DNA of 64,000 nt. Source: Hydrotalea sp. GTDB lineage: Bacteria; Pseudomonadota; Alphaproteobacteria; JASGCL01. Position 1 is the stretch's first letter; every line of letters begins with the position of its first letter. The stretch is from contig JASGCL010000001.1 of NCBI GenBank assembly GCA_030054115.1, positions 48,788 through 112,787 of the forward strand, in the 5' to 3' direction. The notes below the pieces were generated by a model. The model made no database searches, was not told where the DNA came from, and saw only the letters and a list, made by a program, of their open reading frames with translations. This document shows, piece by piece, positions 5,438-46,909 of this stretch. A program made the translations under genes and the position numbers.

Positions 5438-8209
5438 TTATGCCAGCACCAATTTTTTAATCGCCGCCATTGTATCATCGGCCACCGTGATGTTGCTTCC
5501 GCCCGCCATCTCTGTGGCTGGCAGGCTTCCGCCTGCCCTCTCTGTGGATGGCAGGCTTCCGCCCGCCATGGCAAAATCGGGGCGACCGCCGCCACTGCCG
5601 CCCAGCATTTTGCCGGCCATGGTGGCAATGTCGCCGGCCGAGATAGCTTGCCGCGCCGTGCCATTGACCGCAATGGCGACCGCGACCTTGCCATCGTCAA
5701 CCGCCAACAGGGCAATCACGCTGTTGGCAAGGTCAGGATTTTTTTTGATATTATCGATGATGGGTTTCAGGTCGCGGCCGGTAACGCCATCGATTTTTTT
5801 ACCCACATAGATAAAATCATGACTCGGGTGTTTTTCACCATCAGCCAGCGATAGATTTGATGCCGCCGCAATTTTTTTATCGGCTAACTCCTTGGCCAGT
5901 TTTTTGTTATTCGCCATCACCGCGTCATATTGCTGTTGCAGGGTTTTTATCATAGCTTGCTTTTCGATAATCTCAGTCGGCACCGGTGGAAATACACTCG
6001 CCTTATTTGCCGCTTTTATTTTTGCCTGCCACGCGTTTATTTCTATCTCCAATTTTTTATGCACCATCGCCTTGCCGGTTATGGCCGTAACGCGCCGCAC
6101 GCCCGACGCCACCGATTCTTCGCGCTCTATCATCAGATGTTCAATCTCGGCGACATCGGCCACGTGGGTGCCGCCGCATAATTCTATCGAATAAAAATGT
6201 TGCCGTTCGTTGTTCGCCGATTTATCGGTCGCCGCCCCCATGAAAACCACCCGCACCGCGTCGCCATATTTTTCACCGAACAGGGCAATCGCCCCCAACT
6301 GTTCTGCCGTCGGTTTGTCCATGGTTTTTGTTATCACCCGCCCGCCCCTAGCCACGCGGTCATTCACCGCCGATTCAATCTGGGCCAGGCGCGCCGCGTC
6401 AATCGCCTCGTGATGCGAAAAATCAAAACGCAAATGGTCGTTGGCGACCAACGAACCCTTTTGCGCAACATGCGAGCCCAGTTCCTGGCGCAATGCCTCG
6501 TGCAACAGATGGGTTGCCGAATGGTTGGCGCGCACGCCGTTGCGCCAGGCTTCATCGACTCGCGCTGAAACCTTATCGCCAATTTTTACCGCGCCGCGAT
6601 TTTCGGTTGCGGTAATATGGTGGACGATAATGCCCTGGTATTTTTTTGTGTCCTTCACCTGATATTGCACGCCGTTAATATCGAGCGTGCCGCGGTCGCC
6701 CTTTTGCCCGCCGGCCTCGCCATAAAACGGCGTTTGGTCAAGCACTAGCCAACAATCATCACCCGCCGGCAACTGCGCCATCGATTGCAATTCGTTATCA
6801 AGCAGGGCAATCACCGCGCCGTCGCCCGATAATCCGTCATAGCCCAAAAATTTTGTCTCGCCATGTTTTTCCTTCAACGCAAACCAAATTGGTGCTTGCT
6901 TGTTATCGCCCGACCCGGCCCAGGATTCTTTGCCGCGTTTTTTTTGTTCGGCCATCGCCTTATCAAAACCCGCGACCTCGACCCCGCGCCCATCGCCACG
7001 CATGATGTCGATGGTTAAATCGAGCGGGAAACCAAAGGTGTCATAAAGTTGAAAGGCCACCGCCCCAGGCAAATCCTTTCCCGCCGGAATTTTTTCAATT
7101 TCCTTATTCAACAACCCCATGCCACGCGCCAACAATTCTTCGAACTGTTCTTCCTCGCGCAAAAAAACTTGGTTGATATTTTTTTGCTCCTTGCTCAATT
7201 CGTTGTAATGCCCACCCATCACATCGATTAAGCTCGGCAACAGCCGCCCAAACAATGGCCGGTCGTTGCCCAACATGTGGGCGTGGCGCATGGCGCGGCG
7301 CATGATGCGGCGCAGGACGTAACCCCGTCCCTCGTTCGATGGCGCAACCCCGTCGGCAACCAAAAACGCCATGGCGCGCAAATGGTCGGCGATAACGCGG
7401 AACGAGGCGATGGTTTTCTCGGTTGGTTTTTGGCGAAGCGCGGCCTCAACCGCGGCAATCAACGGCGTAAACAAACTGGTGTCGTAATTGTTCGCAACGC
7501 CCTCCAGCACGGCGGTGATACGCTCCAGCCCCATGCCGGTATCGATAGACGGGCGGGGTAAATCTATCCGCTTGCCGGCGGCCTGCATTTCATATTGCAT
7601 GAAAACCAAATTCCAAATTTCGACAAAGCGGTCGCCGTCTTGGTCTTTGCTCCCCGGTGGGCCGCCAAAAATTTTATCGCCATGGTCATAAAAAATTTCG
7701 GAGCATGGCCCGCAGGGTCCGGTGTCGCCCATTTGCCAAAAATTGTCGTTGGTGGCGATGCGGATAATTTTATCATCGGGGAGGCCGGCAATTTTTTTCC
7801 ACAGGTTATAGGCAGACTCGTCATCGTGATAGACCGTGACGCAAAGTTTATCGCGCGGCAATTTCAGCTCTTGGCTGACAACTTGCCACGCATGGTGAAT
7901 CGCCTGTTCTTTAAAATAATCGCCGAACGAAAAATTGCCGAGCATTTCAAAAAAACTATGGTGGCGCGCGGTGTAGCCAACATTGTCCAAATCGTTATGC
8001 TTGCCGCCGGCACGCACGCATTTTTGCGCGGTGGTGGCGGTTTGATAATCACGTTTTTCCAAACCCAAAAATATATTTTTAAATTGCACCATGCCCGAAT
8101 TGACGAACATCAATGTCGGGTCGTCGTGCGGCACCAACGACGACGACGGCACCACACGGTGGCCGGTGTTTTTAAAATAATCAAGAAATATTTTGCGAAT
8201 ATCGGTCAT
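5438..8209 (-). CDS. alaS: Alanine--tRNA ligase
   Basis: 923 aa with class II aaRS catalytic core, editing domain (HSATHLLHEAL) and C-terminal DHHA1-like region. The C-terminus contains an extra repeat-encoded insertion (see repeat feature). Confidence 0.95.
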   Translation of the reverse strand: MTDIRKIFLDYFKNTGHRVVPSSSLVPHDDPTLMFVNSGMVQFKNIFLGLEKRDYQTATTAQKCVRAGGKHNDLDNVGYTARHHSFFEMLGNFSFGDYFKEQAIHHAWQVVSQELKLPRDKLCVTVYHDDESAYNLWKKIAGLPDDKIIRIATNDNFWQMGDTGPCGPCSEIFYDHGDKIFGGPPGSKDQDGDRFVEIWNLVFMQYEMQAAGKRIDLPRPSIDTGMGLERITAVLEGVANNYDTSLFTPLIAAVEAALRQKPTEKTIASFRVIADHLRAMAFLVADGVAPSNEGRGYVLRRIMRRAMRHAHMLGNDRPLFGRLLPSLIDVMGGHYNELSKEQKNINQVFLREEEQFEELLARGMGLLNKEIEKIPAGKDLPGAVAFQLYDTFGFPLDLTIDIMRGDGRGVEVAGFDKAMAEQKKRGKESWAGSGDNKQAPIWFALKEKHGETKFLGYDGLSGDGAVIALLDNELQSMAQLPAGDDCWLVLDQTPFYGEAGGQKGDRGTLDINGVQYQVKDTKKYQGIIVHHITATENRGAVKIGDKVSARVDEAWRNGVRANHSATHLLHEALRQELGSHVAQKGSLVANDHLRFDFSHHEAIDAARLAQIESAVNDRVARGGRVITKTMDKPTAEQLGAIALFGEKYGDAVRVVFMGAATDKSANNERQHFYSIELCGGTHVADVAEIEHLMIEREESVASGVRRVTAITGKAMVHKKLEIEINAWQAKIKAANKASVFPPVPTEIIEKQAMIKTLQQQYDAVMANNKKLAKELADKKIAAASNLSLADGEKHPSHDFIYVGKKIDGVTGRDLKPIIDNIKKNPDLANSVIALLAVDDGKVAVAIAVNGTARQAISAGDIATMAGKMLGGSGGGRPDFAMAGGSLPSTERAGGSLPATEMAGGSNITVADDTMAAIKKLVLA
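5487..5570. repeat. 30-bp tandem repeat (about 2.5 copies) in-frame inside the alaS 3' region
   Basis: Unit gcttccgcc[c/t]gcc[a/c]tctctgtgg[c/a]tggcag occurs twice in full plus a partial third copy. On the coding strand it encodes the duplicated peptide AGGSLP(S/A)TE(R/M). Confidence 0.8.
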
Positions 8210-16211: not shown

Positions 16212-16787
16212 GTGCAACAAGCAACGAGTGGTAGTAATATGCAAAATAAAAAAATTTATAGCGTAATTTTTTACATAATAAAAACGTGCCAAGATAAAAA
16301 CTATAAGCTTGGCGCAGTTCGACTCAATAAAATTATTTGGAATTCCGATATTTCTTATCTTAAAGAAAATGGGCGCACAATCACGGAAGAAAAATATGCC
16401 AAGCGCCAATATGGCCCAGTGGTGTTCTCTATGCCTTCTTATATTCGAGAGTTGACACTAAACGGATATATAGACTTTGCTAATAAAATTAGCAATTATG
16501 GAGAAAATGAATATAAAATGACTCTGTACTCTGTCAAAAATAATTTTACAGTAAGCTTATCGAGTAATGAGAAACAAATTATAGATAATTTTATAAATAA
16601 AATATGCAATCAAACTGCTCAAGAAGCAAGTGACGATACTCATGATAATGTCTATGAGCTTACTCCCGATGGTGAAGAAATGCCGTTGGGAGCTTATCTA
16701 TTTGCTGAACCTGCGCCTATAGATGAAAAAGATATAACAGAAGCAAAAAGAACTATTGAACAACTTTCTATAAAATCTAATGCCTAG
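16212..16787 (+). CDS. Panacea (DUF4065)-domain protein, putative type II antitoxin (PanA/SocA-like)
   Basis: 191 aa, AT-rich codon usage. The segment LGAVRLNKIIWNSDISYLKENGRTITEEKYAKRQYGPV resembles the Panacea-domain core (KLxKLLYxAD ... GPV). Its stop overlaps the next ORF by 8 nt. Confidence 0.5.
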   Translation: MQQATSGSNMQNKKIYSVIFYIIKTCQDKNYKLGAVRLNKIIWNSDISYLKENGRTITEEKYAKRQYGPVVFSMPSYIRELTLNGYIDFANKISNYGENEYKMTLYSVKNNFTVSLSSNEKQIIDNFINKICNQTAQEASDDTHDNVYELTPDGEEMPLGAYLFAEPAPIDEKDITEAKRTIEQLSIKSNA

Positions 16788-17064
16788 ATATAAAGTAGAA
16801 TTGTCAGAAAATGCAAAATCTCAATATAATGAGATGCAGCAAGATACTGACCTTCTAAAATTTTTCAATCTCTTGATAGAAAAATTATTGGTGATGCCAA
16901 CTGACGGCGCAACGCCTCTCCGAGCGAATGGAATTCCATATTTCTTATACAAAACTAACCCAAAAATTTGTAAGATAAGTATATTATTTCATGTAGATAA
17001 TAGTAAAAATATTGTGATAATTGAAAACGTTTCTACATACGACGAAAGCCAAGTAGCTTTTTAA
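16780..17064 (+). CDS. RelE/ParE-superfamily-like toxin
   Basis: 94 aa. The N-terminus YKVELSENAKSQYNEM and C-terminal I.ILFHVDNSKNIVIIENV resemble the ParE/RelE pattern (YkIefs.kA.kdl.kl ... yRiiY.id.....i.ilri). It is translationally coupled to the upstream Panacea ORF. Confidence 0.45.
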   Translation: MPRYKVELSENAKSQYNEMQQDTDLLKFFNLLIEKLLVMPTDGATPLRANGIPYFLYKTNPKICKISILFHVDNSKNIVIIENVSTYDESQVAF

Positions 17065-23732: not shown

Positions 23733-23780
23733 GGACGAATTAGGAAAACCATATCACTAAGGTTATTTTTCCTTGCTATA

Positions 23781-23810
23781 TTGCTTGAATCAAGCTAAGG
23801 TTGGTATAGT
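23781..23810 (+). promoter_or_regulatory. Putative sigma70-type promoter for the AT-rich three-gene cassette
   Basis: TTGCTT - 18 nt - TATAGT, about 25 nt upstream of the first ATG of the cassette. Pattern match only. Confidence 0.35.
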
Positions 23811-23833
23811 GTTAAATATGCTGTGTCTAATAT

Positions 23834-24637
23834 ATGAAAGAAATTAAAATGGCGCAACATCCTAAAAGACTTAAAATTTTGCCGCTGGTTGATGCCGTAT
23901 TTGAAATAAGGTTCAGGCATCCCTTTAAAGCTTATCAGGCAATCGTTGGGACTATTTATAACAATGTTGATTCAGAATATAAAAACAAAGAAATTATTAA
24001 CACCAACGAATCTGTGTTGCCAAAGCCCGTGAGGGATTCTCAGCCCCAATTCGAATACGCAATGTTAAATATAATCTCCCTAGATGGAATTTTTATTGGA
24101 GTGGGAGAGAAAGCACTTAACCTGGTTGCTAAATATCCTTATCCAGGTTGGGACGTTTTTAAGCAGAAAATTTTTAAAGTGTTAGATATTCTACAAGAGG
24201 GCACAGACGACACCTCTATAAATCGCTTCAGTTTAAAATACATTGATGTTATAGATAATAGCAGATTAATTAACCCTAGCAATCACTTGGACTCTTTAAA
24301 AATACAATTAAATATATTAGAGCAAAACTACCAAAAAGATATTTTCCATTTTATAATTACCACAAAAGATGAAAAAAATCATGCTATAAGTACTATACTT
24401 AATTTATCAGCACCAGCTGAGGTTAAAATTAATGGCGAAGCAACATATGAAGCAACCAATGGTATTAGAATTGACATAGATGTTATAAAAAATGTTGAAG
24501 AAGACCTAACCATACGCTCTCTATTAACAACAATAAAAAATCAGGACTCAGTTCTAGATGAAATGCATATAAAGGTTAAAAATTTATTCTTTAATATATT
24601 GGACGCAAAAGTAATAAAGAATCATGATCCCGAGTAA
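23834..24637 (+). CDS. Hypothetical protein, TIGR04255-like N-terminus
   Basis: 267 aa, strongly AT-rich codons. N-terminal LPLVDAVFEIRF resembles the conserved start of TIGR04255-family proteins. No catalytic motif recognised. Confidence 0.55.
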   Translation: MKEIKMAQHPKRLKILPLVDAVFEIRFRHPFKAYQAIVGTIYNNVDSEYKNKEIINTNESVLPKPVRDSQPQFEYAMLNIISLDGIFIGVGEKALNLVAKYPYPGWDVFKQKIFKVLDILQEGTDDTSINRFSLKYIDVIDNSRLINPSNHLDSLKIQLNILEQNYQKDIFHFIITTKDEKNHAISTILNLSAPAEVKINGEATYEATNGIRIDIDVIKNVEEDLTIRSLLTTIKNQDSVLDEMHIKVKNLFFNILDAKVIKNHDPE

Positions 24638-24646
24638 GTTTTAAAA

Positions 24647-25204
24647 ATGACATACGCTTTGCCCCTGCCCCTGTCTTCTTTCAATAATTTGGAGAAGTCT
24701 GCTACGCCATTAAATTTATTTAATGGTCTAAAACAATCGGAGAGATTTAATTACATTTCACGCCAATCTGGCCGTCAAATGAGTATTATCAAATCTATTT
24801 TAAATATAGATGATAACAACTCATATTATAACGCTAATATTAAATTTGAAATAGAAAAAAAGATTGCACAAGCTATTCAGAGGACACGAGAAGAGGATGA
24901 AAAAATCAGACCAAATGCAACATCCCAAACGAACCTGTTGGCATTTCTTTCTACTGGTAATTTTGATTTGCCATCAGTTTTTTTACTTGAAAATGGTGTA
25001 TTCCAAATAGTTTGGTCTAAAGGGGCGGGAGAAAGAATAGAAGTTCAATTTCTAGAAGATGGCTTCATAGAGCTAGCGGCGATTATTAAAGAAGGAAATA
25101 AAAATGTTCCTAGATATTTTGTATATCAAGAGAAAGAAAACGTTATTAGACAAATTAAAAATGATAGATTAGACAGAATCATCAATGAAAAAAAACATAC
25201 CTGA
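24647..25204 (+). CDS. Hypothetical protein (orphan ORF 2 of the cassette)
   Basis: 185 aa. Begins 10 nt after ORF1 on the same strand with AT-rich composition. No recognisable domain. Confidence 0.5.
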   Translation: MTYALPLPLSSFNNLEKSATPLNLFNGLKQSERFNYISRQSGRQMSIIKSILNIDDNNSYYNANIKFEIEKKIAQAIQRTREEDEKIRPNATSQTNLLAFLSTGNFDLPSVFLLENGVFQIVWSKGAGERIEVQFLEDGFIELAAIIKEGNKNVPRYFVYQEKENVIRQIKNDRLDRIINEKKHT

Positions 25205-25619
25205 TAATGATAATGTGCTTCGTCATATTAAAGGCTCTTGGCTAGATGCTGAGAAAAATACTGTTACGTCTGAGGCGTTTATGCTAAGAGAGCACGAACA
25301 AGGTATATCTGTAAACTGGCTAGAGCATGATATAATCAAATATCCGAATACAAAATCTCAGATTAATTTTATCAGAGGTTCTATCAATCTAGAATTAAAA
25401 AAAAGCCATCGTTTTCTAAAATTGAATGTTGGTAAAACCAAAAATATAATAAAAGAAAAAATAAAAAAAACTATTATTATAGAACACCAACCGAATAAGC
25501 ATGATAATTCTCATTCTTGCATTGCTATAGAAAAAAATAAAATTATTAATAAGTTAATAGCGCTATGCATTGTAGAAGAATTTGGGAAAAAGGATAATCT
25601 TATCGATGCCGCATCCTAA
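25185..25619 (+). CDS. Hypothetical protein (orphan ORF 3 of the cassette)
   Basis: 144 aa, overlaps ORF2 by 20 nt, very Lys/Ile/Asn-rich. The N-terminal HIKGSWLD ... ISVNWLEH block has no confident family assignment. Confidence 0.5.
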   Translation: MKKNIPDNDNVLRHIKGSWLDAEKNTVTSEAFMLREHEQGISVNWLEHDIIKYPNTKSQINFIRGSINLELKKSHRFLKLNVGKTKNIIKEKIKKTIIIEHQPNKHDNSHSCIAIEKNKIINKLIALCIVEEFGKKDNLIDAAS

Positions 25620-25798
25620 TATTTTTTGCCCCCGATTTGGCATCGCCGAATAGAATTATAGTATTATTCTTTAAAGAATAATGAATGGTTTTAGACGCTG
25701 GCTAAAATAGCTCCCTACTTGCAAGACCCCGAACAAATATACTTGACCACACTGGCCTGTTTACTAACGCTGGTGCCGGCCATGCTGTTAGTAATAAA

Positions 25799-30431: not shown

Positions 30432-31070
30432 GTGTCTTTATTTGATAATTTAAATCCTGCTAGTTTTCTAAAATCCTTGTTAGATAACAAGGACGCTGTG
30501 TTTTTCATCATGGCTTTTATTCTGCCGGGTTTTATTTGCGTTAAGTTTTATGAAATTTTGACTGGCCAAAAACGAACTGACGCTAGCCAATTTAGAATGG
30601 ATTTTTTTGCTTACAGCTTAATAAATAATTTTTTTGCTTTGCTATTGGATATAACAATTAATCATTTTCTTGCGTCAAAAACAGATATTGTTAGCTACCT
30701 GCTCTATTTCTTATATTTTGTCATCTTGCCAATTTGTTTAACTTATATCCTTTATTTATCTAGGAAAGCTAACTGGTCTATATGGTTGTTTCAGCATCCT
30801 GATGCTTATGCCTGGGACCATGCCTTTAAGAATGCTAAAAATGGATGTTTTGTCATCGTAACTTTAAACGATGGTAAAAAATATGCTGGGAAATATATTA
30901 GCAAACCACAAGAGAAAAAAACATCCTTTGCCGCCTCTGGTTATTTAGCAAAAGACATATACCTTGCCGAACAATGGGAGTTAAATAAAAATGCCAGCTT
31001 TAAGAAAAAAACTAATCAAACTGGCGGAATATATTTATCAGACATTAAGACTATTGAATTTTTTGAGTAA
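30432..31070 (+). CDS. Hypothetical membrane protein (N-terminal multi-TM region, C-terminal soluble domain)
   Basis: 212 aa, AT-rich. Three to four hydrophobic helices in residues 20-110, then a soluble C-terminal part (CFVIVTLNDGKKYAGKYIS ... GGIYLSDIKTIEFFE). No family recognised. Confidence 0.55.
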   Translation: MSLFDNLNPASFLKSLLDNKDAVFFIMAFILPGFICVKFYEILTGQKRTDASQFRMDFFAYSLINNFFALLLDITINHFLASKTDIVSYLLYFLYFVILPICLTYILYLSRKANWSIWLFQHPDAYAWDHAFKNAKNGCFVIVTLNDGKKYAGKYISKPQEKKTSFAASGYLAKDIYLAEQWELNKNASFKKKTNQTGGIYLSDIKTIEFFE

Positions 31071-38163: not shown

Positions 38164-39912
38164 ATGACTCAAGCTACATCCACTGACAGAATTAGAAAAA
38201 ATCTTTTTATCCCTACTAATATTTCTATTGGAGATATGTTGGGTAATGGCAAAAAATATATTGTGCCAAAATACCAACGGAATTACTCATGGGAGCAAGA
38301 ACAATGGCAAGAGTTATGGGATGATATAAAAAAATGCTATGAAGATGAAAATTATTATCACTTCTTAGGAAATATTGTTTTATCAGAACAAATCGGTAGA
38401 AAAGAGTTTGAAATTATTGATGGCCAACAACGACTGGCTAGCATAAGCATCGTTGCCATTGTCTTAATAGATTTCTTACAGCAACTTGTTAATGAGAGCA
38501 TCAGCAAGGACGAGAATCAAAAACGCGTTTCTTATTATAAAGAAAGATTAATTTCAAGCACCGATGGCACGACCCTTTACTCCTATCCAAAGTTACAACT
38601 TAATAAAAACAACAATGACTACTATAAAGATTACTTAAGCCAAATAAATATTGTTAGACCTTCCGATAATAATTCTAAGCCGCTTTATGACTCCATAATT
38701 TTTTTTAAAAAGCGGCTAAATGAAGACTATCCTAATGTCATTAAGGATGGCGAACAGATATCAAAAATACTAGAGTCAATAATCGACAAGTTATTTTTAA
38801 TACAAATCACCGTTGCTAATGAGAATGACGCCTACATTCTTTTTGAATGTTTAAATGCACGTGGCTTAGACCTTTCCCCCGCTGATTTAATTAAAAATTA
38901 TATTTTCTCTCAAATAAGAACCCCTCACGATGCTGACATCATTTCATCAAAATGGCAAGAGCTTGAAGGTATTACTAAAGCGAATAAACTTGCTTCTTTT
39001 ATAAGGTATTTTCATAATTGTACTGAAGCCGGGGTTATTAAAGAAAAGCAATTATTTTTAGAATTACAAAACATTATTAAAGAAACTTATCACGGCAATA
39101 TAGATAAATTTATTAACCAGCTTATAGAATATGCAAAGATTTATAGAGCCTTAAAAAATTATACTGATGATGAATGGCATAAGGAGGGGGGGCAAGATAT
39201 TAAAAACGCAGTTAGGGTATTAACTGATTTAGGGGTGCAACAACCTCTAATTGTTCTGATGCCTGCATATCAAAAATTCAAAACAAGGGATTTTATTCAA
39301 ACCATAAAATATCTTTCAATTGTAGCAATAAGATACAATATTGTCTGCCATAAAAATCCTAACGCGCAAGAAAGCCTGTATAATAAAATTGCCATAGACA
39401 TCCATGCTGGCAAAATAAAAGGATCTTCGGATATAAAGGACAGAGTCATAAAAGGGGGAATATATCCAAATGATAATGAATTTAAGGCAAGCTTTCAGAC
39501 CTTGTCTATAACGAAAACTAAGGTCATTATATATTTTTTAAAAGAATTAGAAAATTATATTTCTGGCAACAATCGGGGCACGGCTGATACTGCAGGCACT
39601 ATAGAGCATATATTGCCTGAAAGCTGGAACGAAAATTGGGCTGATTTCTTTGATACAAAGCAACATGAGGAGTATTATAAAAAGTTTGGTAACTATTGTC
39701 TCTTAGAGGCAGAGATTAATAGTTCAAACGAAATGGCTGATATAAAAACATTTTCAGAAAAAAAAGCAGGCTATAAGAAATCAAATTATGCTCTAGCGAA
39801 GCAGTTATTAAAATATGACGAATGGAATGAAGATTCTATTAATACTCGTCAAGAAAATTTAGCCGAGCAAGCAATAAAAATTTGGTCGTTTGATAATATT
39901 GATAATCTATAA
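38164..39912 (+). CDS. DUF262 + DUF1524 fusion protein (GmrSD / BrxU-like modification-dependent nuclease; putative type IV restriction/defence)
   Basis: 582 aa, AT-rich. The N-terminus has the DUF262 (ParB/Srx-like NTPase) signature IDGQQRL. The C-terminus has a DUF1524 His-Me finger-like block IEHILPESW ... GNYCLLEAEINSS. Confidence 0.75.
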   Translation: MTQATSTDRIRKNLFIPTNISIGDMLGNGKKYIVPKYQRNYSWEQEQWQELWDDIKKCYEDENYYHFLGNIVLSEQIGRKEFEIIDGQQRLASISIVAIVLIDFLQQLVNESISKDENQKRVSYYKERLISSTDGTTLYSYPKLQLNKNNNDYYKDYLSQINIVRPSDNNSKPLYDSIIFFKKRLNEDYPNVIKDGEQISKILESIIDKLFLIQITVANENDAYILFECLNARGLDLSPADLIKNYIFSQIRTPHDADIISSKWQELEGITKANKLASFIRYFHNCTEAGVIKEKQLFLELQNIIKETYHGNIDKFINQLIEYAKIYRALKNYTDDEWHKEGGQDIKNAVRVLTDLGVQQPLIVLMPAYQKFKTRDFIQTIKYLSIVAIRYNIVCHKNPNAQESLYNKIAIDIHAGKIKGSSDIKDRVIKGGIYPNDNEFKASFQTLSITKTKVIIYFLKELENYISGNNRGTADTAGTIEHILPESWNENWADFFDTKQHEEYYKKFGNYCLLEAEINSSNEMADIKTFSEKKAGYKKSNYALAKQLLKYDEWNEDSINTRQENLAEQAIKIWSFDNIDNL

Positions 39913-46549: not shown

Positions 46550-46909
46550 TTATTTATTTTTTCTATAACGATTGGATCGAATAATTAACAATGGCACCCC
46601 TATTAATAACAATAAAAATACCACGTCTCTTTCAAACCAAGACCATGCAATCACCACGGCATAAAAAATAACCACGCTAGTGACATTTATTCCTATATCT
46701 CTTGCTCTAGCACTCCAGACCATTGCCATAGATACAATAGCTACTACATATAATATTAAGTAACTATTATAACTGATTTCTTCATTTTGATTAAGCAATG
46801 CAAGGAAGAAAAATAACACAACATAAGATACAAAATATCCTACCCTAGCCATTCTCAACGAAGTGAAAAATGAAACGATAAATTGCAAAAATGATTTTTG
46901 TTTTTTCAT
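46550..46909 (-). CDS. Small inner-membrane protein, DUF805-like
   Basis: 119 aa, AT-rich. Three to four TM segments, with SARARDIG resembling the DUF805 R.HDxGxSGW core. Weak assignment. Confidence 0.35.
   Translation of the reverse strand: MKKQKSFLQFIVSFFTSLRMARVGYFVSYVVLFFFLALLNQNEEISYNSYLILYVVAIVSMAMVWSARARDIGINVTSVVIFYAVVIAWSWFERDVVFLLLLIGVPLLIIRSNRYRKNK

Follow-up and report, generated by a model that had tools for sequence, protein, structure and literature searches.

A TIGR04255-led operon with an ADP-ribosyltransferase-fold third protein as a candidate tripartite toxin-antitoxin module

In CmdTAC, the ADP-ribosyltransferase (ART) toxin CmdT is curbed by an antitoxin that is stabilized by a SecB-like chaperone, itself a sensor of a phage capsid protein, and experiments have shown the toxin-antitoxin-chaperone (TAC) design to be modular, with interchangeable chaperone and warhead (PMC11618068; 10.1101/2024.02.24.581848). 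Here, we describe a three-gene cassette of comparable design, located at positions 23834-25619 of a 64,000-nucleotide (nt) stretch of contig JASGCL010000001.1 (assembly GCA_030054115.1), which we call the window. The cassette is a horizontally acquired operon of three open reading frames (ORF1 to ORF3, Table 1). ORF1 belongs to the TIGR04255 family, and ORF3 very probably folds as an ART. Our favored reading, which we hold to be moderately probable, is that of a horizontally acquired tripartite toxin-antitoxin (TA) or abortive-infection (Abi)-type module.

The likeness to CmdTAC (also known as PD-T4-9) lies in the three genes, an ART-fold candidate toxin, a putative antitoxin and a third component common to unrelated warheads. 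Both systems occur in prophages and defense islands, and modularity is seen here as co-varying pairs of second and third genes (g2 and g3). In contrast to CmdTAC, the third component is a TIGR04255 protein of ~250 aa with no SecB match in Pfam, and no sequence similarity between ORF3 and CmdT could be detected. PADLOC v2.0.0, which presumably includes the PD-T4-9 models, gave no PD-T4-9 match either. In TAC antitoxins, the chaperone-addiction (ChAD) element extends the C-terminus, whereas the g2 module shared among other types of our cassette is N-terminal. Because a SecB-like protein and homology to CmdT and CmdA are absent and the gene order is different, we do not count the cassette among the TAC systems, and the resemblance is an analogy of design, not homology.

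The other described systems stand further away. DarTG, ParST, MbcTA and Xre-RES are two-gene modules devoid of a TIGR04255 gene, and their partner proteins are unrelated to ours, since ORF2 and its relatives had no match in Pfam or NCBIfam, whether to a macrodomain, to Xre or to a ParS/MbcA-like protein. PDC-M32 is an uncharacterized two-gene PADLOC candidate system reported in Sinorhizobium meliloti prophages (PMC12429752). Its component PDC-M32A shares the C-terminal domain of the type III and type IV g2 proteins defined below, yet the match covers only the C-terminal ~85 of 375 profile positions, ORF1 and ORF3 hit neither PDC-M32A nor PDC-M32B, no PDC-M32B match was found in the cassette, and PDC-M32 is itself a computational candidate only. 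A system of "three genes without predicted domain" (3HP) has been described in a hotspot of P2-like phages (PMC9122126). Neither ORF1-3 nor the related triads of phages Dobby and VW-6S had a PADLOC match to it. We take the 3HP models to be part of PADLOC v2.0.0. Across all its models, PADLOC detected nothing in the cassette beyond weak or partial matches to AbiEii, PDC-M32A and PDC-M01B, which agrees with the preliminary description of this locus, made from the sequence alone, in that no described system could be named. TIGR04255 is listed in NCBIfam as a "sporadically distributed" hypothetical protein and corresponds to PHROG 5464, and ORF1 is a full-length member above the cut-off. We found no paper on this family under any of its names in the searchable literature and, as far as our searches show, its place as the consistent first gene of three-gene toxin-type cassettes is undescribed. 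We class the cassette as a TA/Abi module candidate with an ART-fold toxin, whose hub protein, toxin family and antitoxin family are all new.

The operon and its third protein

The ORF listing gave three co-directional, tightly coupled ORFs directly after mlaF, with the same coordinates and lengths (267, 185 and 144 aa) as in the preliminary description. The 20-nt overlap between ORF2 and ORF3 was also as described, and the spacing between ORF1 and ORF2 was 9 nt (24638-24646), not 10. With this spacing and overlap, the proposal of one coupled operon stands. The composition of the operon is foreign to its surroundings. GC content was 0.315 in the cassette vs 0.484 in the whole window, and the cassette was the lowest among 623 sliding 1786-bp windows (mean 0.483, sd 0.046). 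GC content at third codon positions was 0.24-0.29 in the cassette genes vs 0.52-0.70 in cysN, mlaE, mlaF, EEP and pntAB, and the combined share of Lys, Asn and Ile was 0.28-0.39 in the cassette proteins vs 0.13-0.22 in those of flanking genes. Hence the AT-rich, Lys/Asn/Ile-rich character that had been read by eye was recovered in all three computed measures, a composition equal to that of the flanks was not what we observed, and the idea of a horizontally acquired accessory module was upheld on these grounds.

ORF2 and ORF3 had both been regarded as orphans without recognizable features. As a matter of fact, a word-indexed search returned two relatives only for ORF3, and the self-match only for ORF2. 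For ORF3, this orphan status was overturned by an exhaustive HMMER profile search over 1.84 billion representatives, which yielded 1,670 clusters at E <= 1e-3, of which 825 also passed E <= 1e-10. Among the best 150 of the 1,670 matches, lengths ranged from 87 to 172 aa and were mostly ~140 aa. These relatives are named "hypothetical" in their sources and are almost entirely metagenomic in origin. When 46 of them were aligned with ORF3, none of the 47 sequences matched a Pfam or NCBIfam family, RES and DarT included. The ORF3 profile had no match among Protein Data Bank (PDB) sequences, and a tblastn search with an ORF3 relative found nothing in annotated phages and plasmids.

The 47 homologs supported an AlphaFold2 model of ORF3 with high scores (pLDDT 92.9, pTM 0.86), while a 3-sequence alignment had given no usable model (pLDDT 35). 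The model contains the ART core fold, i.e., a split beta-sheet NAD+-binding domain. Its structural matches were the Rhs toxin TreX (6.1), ArtA (5.8), heat-labile enterotoxin (5.7), DarT (5.7), Scabin (5.6), a RES toxin (5.5), CARDS toxin (5.5), Tse2 (5.3), CC0527 (5.3) and pertussis S1 (5.2), with OspC3, pierisin, NarE, TreTu, ParT and MbcT below. Tpt1 was also among the nearest structural neighbors, at 5% identity over ~98 residues of a 206-residue chain; apart from it, the matches were overwhelmingly toxins. A Foldseek search of the model against PDB and BFVD returned nothing significant. Judging from the model, we are highly confident that ORF3 has an ART fold.

Conservation in the family could be placed on this model. 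The near-invariant residues R13, S42, W45, E47, H101 and H110 are all kept in ORF3. R13 (98%) lies on the first core strand (residues 10-15) and S42 (100%) on the second (40-45), which E47 (98%) follows, and H110 (98%) begins the strand 110-114. With an Arg on the first strand and a Ser on the second, the arrangement would fit the R-S-E kind, except that the later strand has no conserved Glu to take the third, canonical position. Thus, the ORF3 family is, as modeled, new among ART-fold proteins, minimal in size and atypical in its active site, and ORF3 is probably catalytically competent. The earlier view of ORF3 as an orphan is no longer tenable, given a family of 1,670 clusters, an ART fold and conserved R13, S42, E47, H101 and H110. 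An AbiEii/DUF1814 nucleotidyltransferase identity, for which PADLOC gave E = 1.4e-4 and 19.3 bits, was rejected: four homologs (P0002, P0003, L176_g3 and L182_g3) had no such match, and the fold is that of an ART and not of a polymerase-beta-type nucleotidyltransferase.

Table 1. Positions of the cassette genes and associated features in the window
Feature	Position	Strand	Description
ORF1 (g1)	23834-24637	+	267 aa; TIGR04255; conserved "hub" gene of the cassette family
ORF2 (g2)	24647-25204	+	185 aa; divergent, N-terminally short member of the middle genes; proposed cognate antitoxin/adaptor (inferred)
ORF3 (g3)	25185-25619	+	144 aa; minimal ADP-ribosyltransferase-fold protein; proposed NAD+-dependent toxin/effector
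AT-rich islet holding the cassette	23740-25700		~1.95 kb; GC 0.28-0.35 vs ~0.50 in the flanks
Possible promoter	23781-23810	+	TTGCTT, 18 nt, TATAGT; TGg before the -10 (extended -10 context); read from the sequence
Palindrome ATTATTCTTTAAAGAATAAT	25663-25682		20 nt, perfect, AT-only; 44 nt past the ORF3 stop codon

TIGR04255 loci and their exchanged gene pairs

ORF1 scored 80.8 bits on the curated NCBIfam model of TIGR04255 (cut-off 30) over profile positions 5-243 of 252, so its membership, which had been recognized from the N-terminus, holds over nearly the full length; it also matched phrog_5464 (E = 2e-38). Over 93 unique family sequences, a set of conserved polar residues (E24, R26, Y103, W106, R131, S133, K135, Y136, D214, D216, H245 and K249), together with F27, P63, G105 and G210, showed the majority residue in at least 89%, and all of them are present in ORF1. 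No Pfam match was obtained at E <= 1, thus no SecB, and no match was found in PADLOC or among PDB sequences, including by profile search. No internal duplication was detected in TIGR04255. A locus search with ORF1 as the single protein found nothing in genomes or viral contigs.

The layout of TIGR04255 gene, g2 (180-275 aa) and g3, with overlaps, was found at every ORF3-family locus examined, that is, L001, L002, L175-L185 and the window. The complete first genes of these loci scored 57-123 bits on the curated TIGR04255 model; five first genes were truncated, and four of them matched the right C-terminal part of the profile, the exception being that of L175. The co-occurrence of the three genes, a point already raised in the preliminary description, held at all these loci. 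The loci span GC contents of 0.33-0.63. The closest ORF3 relatives lie on AT-rich contigs, which is consistent with an AT-rich donor.

We then considered TIGR04255 at large. An alignment of six diverse members was used to fetch 33 viral loci (IMG/VR) and 80 metagenomic ones, to which two phage and two metagenome loci found earlier were added, giving 117. A chained co-directional gene followed in 114 of these 117 loci, and two such genes in 107, the overlap between the TIGR04255 gene and the second gene being typically 8 nt. The second and third genes form co-varying family pairs. In type I (42 distinct combinations), a c0 middle gene (~105-120 aa) is paired with a c1 third gene (~198 aa, "SNSCDI" motif). 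Type II (24 combinations) pairs a c2 middle gene (~122 aa) with a c3 third gene (~140 aa) that encodes a PIN domain (PF01850, 41.8 bits vs a cut-off of 23.6), and type III (12 combinations) pairs c4 with c5. In addition, c0 is found with c8 or c15 as the third gene (4 and 2 combinations). The ORF2-type and ORF3-type pair, which we call type IV, falls outside the 117-locus sample and is represented by the window and 12 further loci. The type I third genes (e.g., L003 5045-5641 and L004 2187-2786), with a conserved "ILSNSCDI", are the commonest partners of TIGR04255 and had no match in Pfam or PADLOC; the family, carried also by phages VW-6S and Dobby of Pseudomonas, would presumably be a further toxin family without a name. 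Two further proposals were set aside. The c8 third gene resembles HEPN by eye, had no Pfam match and is not claimed as such. Motifs of ORF3-type and type III third proteins are collinear, with a homology score that was not significant (P = 0.06-0.14).

The middle proteins link these types. The c0 proteins paired with three different g3 families share their N-terminal ~80 residues only, and the module can be recognized in some middle genes of the PIN type as well. We regard it as a candidate site for the docking of TIGR04255. A short hydrophobic stretch was seen in the module (L003, L004, L043, L055, L058, L061 and others). In ORF2, it is the C-terminal ~130 residues that can be aligned with g2 proteins, those of 12 other loci of the ORF3 family (best BLASTP E = 1e-3), with the shared pattern A-x-R...S-[LF]...F-L...P-x-[hydrophobic]-x-L...G...W...[hydrophobic]-x-F...G...F-V. 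This C-terminal domain is also detectable in the type III middle genes (hhalign vs type III g2, P = 0.0045; controls 0.24-0.31) and in PDC-M32A, where the match of ORF2 itself is weak and partial (E = 1.6e-3, profile positions 294-368 of 375) and that of L011_g2 reaches E = 3.5e-7. By these alignments, ORF2 belongs with the middle genes, although it has diverged from them and its N-terminus is shortened. It is thus not the orphan of the preliminary description, as it belongs to the cognate family that accompanies ORF3 homologs.

Members of the group were found in prophages and defense islands. In Pseudomonas phage VW-6S, a type I triad is located between cI and int. In the P2-like phage Dobby, a type I triad directly adjoins the portal gene and hence lies in the cos-proximal gpA-gpQ locus, an experimentally shown defense hotspot of P2-like phages (PMC9122126). 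A complete type IV triad sits as a moron in the GC-rich viral contig L176 (2599-4456), where the ORFs on its two sides resemble, by eye, prohead protease and major capsid genes; a position inside the structural module is unusual. Other triads adjoin a serine recombinase (L177, type IV), an integrase and a SIR2-STAND gene (L006, from a gammaproteobacterial metagenome-assembled genome, MAG), or are flanked by IS21 and a DDE transposase (L182). In L006, the type I third gene (6079-6728) is split into ORFs of 144 and 79 aa by a frameshift or an assembly error. In seven type II loci (L054, L071, L078, L088, L090, L099 and L100), the PIN gene is followed by a gene for a PglZ protein of ~842 aa (PF08665, 31.6 bits), mostly with a 4-nt overlap, L078 having a gap of 57 nt instead. 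The order points to a unit of four genes or to an embedding of the PIN-type cassette in BREX-like loci. Other type II triads adjoin a gene resembling, by eye, a restriction-type helicase or a methyltransferase.

Readings of the cassette's function

Under the TA/Abi-type reading, ORF3 would be the effector. Once released, it would arrest the cell, either by ADP-ribosylating an essential macromolecule at the expense of NAD+ or by destroying NAD+. RNA or DNA is a plausible target since the nearest structural neighbors include the nucleic-acid-directed Tpt1 and DarT. ORF2 is proposed, from its neighborhood, as the cognate antitoxin or adaptor that would neutralize ORF3, its C-terminal domain co-varying with the ORF3-type toxin. 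ORF1 would be the hub common to cassettes with unrelated toxins. By analogy with TAC, we propose that it acts on the middle protein as a regulator, a sensor or a chaperone-like partner, probably controlling the stability or activity of that protein, and it may sense a trigger such as a phage protein, following a logic like that of the SecB-like chaperone.

Several observations argue for this reading. As in type II TA pairs in general, ORF2 and ORF3 are small neighboring genes with translational coupling, and the product of ORF3 has a toxin fold. The same genome keeps a GmrSD/HEC-06 enzyme and a Panacea gene pair in AT-rich islets. The ART toxin fold of ORF3 and the recurrence of the triad in prophages and defense islands leave a toxin or defense-type module, already proposed in the preliminary description, as the best reading. 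The individual parts do not deserve the same confidence. We consider it rather likely that the cassette is a toxin-neutralizer module; an anti-phage function is conceivable at slightly under even chances; and a sensor or chaperone-like role of ORF1, the least certain part of the model, is doubtful.

A number of points weigh against our reading. The canonical third catalytic Glu, expected on the fifth core strand of an ART, is not evident in ORF3, where H110 occupies that region. The N-terminal g2 module common to the other cassette types was not detectable in ORF2. Gene order is hub, antitoxin-like gene and toxin gene, as opposed to toxin, antitoxin and chaperone in TAC. The richly conserved polar site of ORF1 suggests ligand binding or an enzyme role, and thus ORF1 may bind a ligand or have enzymatic activity; such residues would be less expected in a passive chaperone than in an enzyme or a ligand-binding protein. 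The borders of the islet show no flanking direct repeats and no integrase, which leaves its mobility unexplained. Finally, toxicity, its neutralization by ORF2, phage defense and what ORF1 does are for all members what we infer, and the roles of ORF1 and ORF2 come purely from gene-neighborhood logic.

A wider version of the TA/Abi-type reading would make TIGR04255 the sensor or hub of a large undescribed class of modular tripartite abortive-infection systems, convergent with SecB-type TAC and assembled from wholly different components. The hub would dock on the shared adaptor segment, the warheads would comprise PIN, the 1,670-cluster ART-fold family, the "SNSCDI" family and others, and ORF3 would be the first member of a new ART family whose active site, R-S-(E/H), is unusual. 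We put this forward tentatively, at odds of roughly one in three. If true, TIGR04255, already labeled in NCBI annotation, would be the signature gene of widespread swappable toxin cassettes carried by temperate phages and defense islands. It would give a function and a fold to an unnamed 1,670-cluster family as a new minimal ADP-ribosyltransferase, and it would be a second independent case of the TAC-like design, with one sensor hub and many warheads. The module is compact (1.8 kb) and easily tested, and would offer annotators of defense systems a new marker that PADLOC 2.0.0 does not detect.

The strongest competitor is a purely selfish addiction module, which would stabilize the mobile DNA that carries it by post-segregational killing and play no part in phage defense. 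A TA-like architecture and carriage on prophages, IS-flanked segments and integrase islands are equally expected of such an element, and in the window, the islet stands alone, with no neighboring defense genes. Nevertheless, members in the P2 gpA-gpQ locus and between cI and int, and others abutting PglZ, SIR2-STAND or restriction genes, speak against pure addiction, as does a third conserved hub with swappable warheads, which is the pattern of a sensing system such as TAC and not that of a minimal addiction module. We give this explanation about one chance in five.

Phage ARTs that remodel the host, such as T4 Alt, ModA and ModB, are well known, and ORF3 could likewise belong to a phage-side weapon, i.e., a prophage effector modifying components of the host or of competitors for the benefit of the phage, or to a counter-defense. 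The 33 homologous loci on viral contigs, and the one among structural genes, would fit. Against this, many loci are chromosomal, next to integrases, IS elements or defense genes, the window contains no prophage, and the interchangeability with PIN toxins and the tight coupling of three genes fit self-restrained toxins, which makes a weapon of this kind improbable.

Slightly less probable still is that ORF3 is a non-toxic Tpt1/KptA-type NAD+-dependent enzyme of nucleic-acid processing, with ORF1 and ORF2 as accessory repair factors. Tpt1 is among the structural neighbors, yet with 144 aa ORF3 covers only the part of the Tpt1 chain given above. Tpt1 enzymes carry a separate N-terminal RNA-binding lobe, for which there is no room in ORF3. 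No Tpt1 sequence model matches ORF3, identity is as low as stated, and the other structural matches point to toxins. Moreover, the context is mobile and toxin-like; a sporadic, AT-rich distribution and a slot swapped with PIN toxins are unlike housekeeping repair.

A decaying or inert relic of transferred DNA would account for the extreme compositional mismatch, the lack of clear Shine-Dalgarno sequences, the weak promoter, the shortened N-terminus of ORF2 and the frameshifted third gene of the relative L006, but it is very improbable, as the three ORFs are intact and still coupled and ORF1 and ORF3 keep every near-invariant residue of their families.

Local signals, flanking genes and other islets

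The promoter proposed upstream of the cassette was partly confirmed. The sequence is present, in an extended -10 context, and its -35 is weak, with 3 of 6 positions matching. A consensus promoter scan of the region did not list this site, and promoter-like sites there were at chance level (9 found vs 9.2 expected from shuffles). No clear Shine-Dalgarno sequences were seen for the cassette genes. The palindrome downstream is real and perfect, as described, although its length is 20 nt and not 18; when the islet was shuffled 500 times by mononucleotides, such a length was reached in only 4 cases. It obtained no score as an intrinsic terminator and, being AT-only, is not a canonical one. It may act as a weak terminator or be bound by a protein, or it may be the relic of a boundary.

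On either side, mlaE-mlaF upstream and a convergent EEP gene (PF03372) downstream were seen again. The preliminary description placed the insertion where mlaD is expected. No credible mlaD was detected in the window, in line with its statement that none is present; a weak MlaD-like tblastn match at 1955-2095 lies outside any ORF of at least 100 aa and was judged spurious. We compared the site with those of the three closest genomes, Alphaproteobacteria MAGs (L123, L124 and L125) with 77-84% identity in MlaF, one of them a complete 1.63-Mb chromosome. All three keep mlaE-mlaF and have no mlaD behind mlaF either, so the expectation of mlaD at this place is not supported. EEP, pntAB and ORF1-3 are all missing within 6 kb downstream. 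In L124, which was read in detail, an AT-rich patch of unrelated sequence comes after mlaF, and leuC comes next. Because synteny breaks directly after mlaF, and the AT-rich DNA there is unrelated, a clean empty site could not be demonstrated in the relatives. The patch in L123 and L124 (~7000-7750, GC 0.22-0.39) is unrelated to the cassette sequence and encodes, in L124, a 121-aa orphan ORF. As AT-rich DNA lies behind mlaF in these genomes too, the site seems to be one that varies repeatedly within the lineage. No tRNA gene was found in the 64-kb window.

With their counterparts in small-genome Alphaproteobacteria MAGs (e.g., OZ241918.1, 1.63 Mb), MlaE and MlaF share 77-89% identity. Going by these identities, the name Hydrotalea, a Bacteroidota genus, under which the MAG is deposited is probably wrong.

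The window holds further AT-rich islets. One at 38164-39912 (+), of GC ~0.32, has sdhB on one side and an ABC transporter gene of type I secretion on the other, and its product is a type IV restriction enzyme of the GmrSD type with 582 aa (Pfam GmrSD_N and GmrSD_C; PADLOC HEC-06, E = 1e-162). Another, at 16212-17064 (+), encodes a 191-aa SocA/Panacea-domain antitoxin (PF13274, 53.7 bits) and a partner of 94 aa with no family match, the two genes overlapping by 8 nt; the pair is probably a PanA-type toxin-antitoxin. Two AT-rich patches, at 30432-31070 (+) and 46550-46909 (-), encode a DUF6338 protein (80.9 bits) and a 119-aa hydrophobic protein with no family match, respectively. All the low-GC patches of the window look like accessory insertions.

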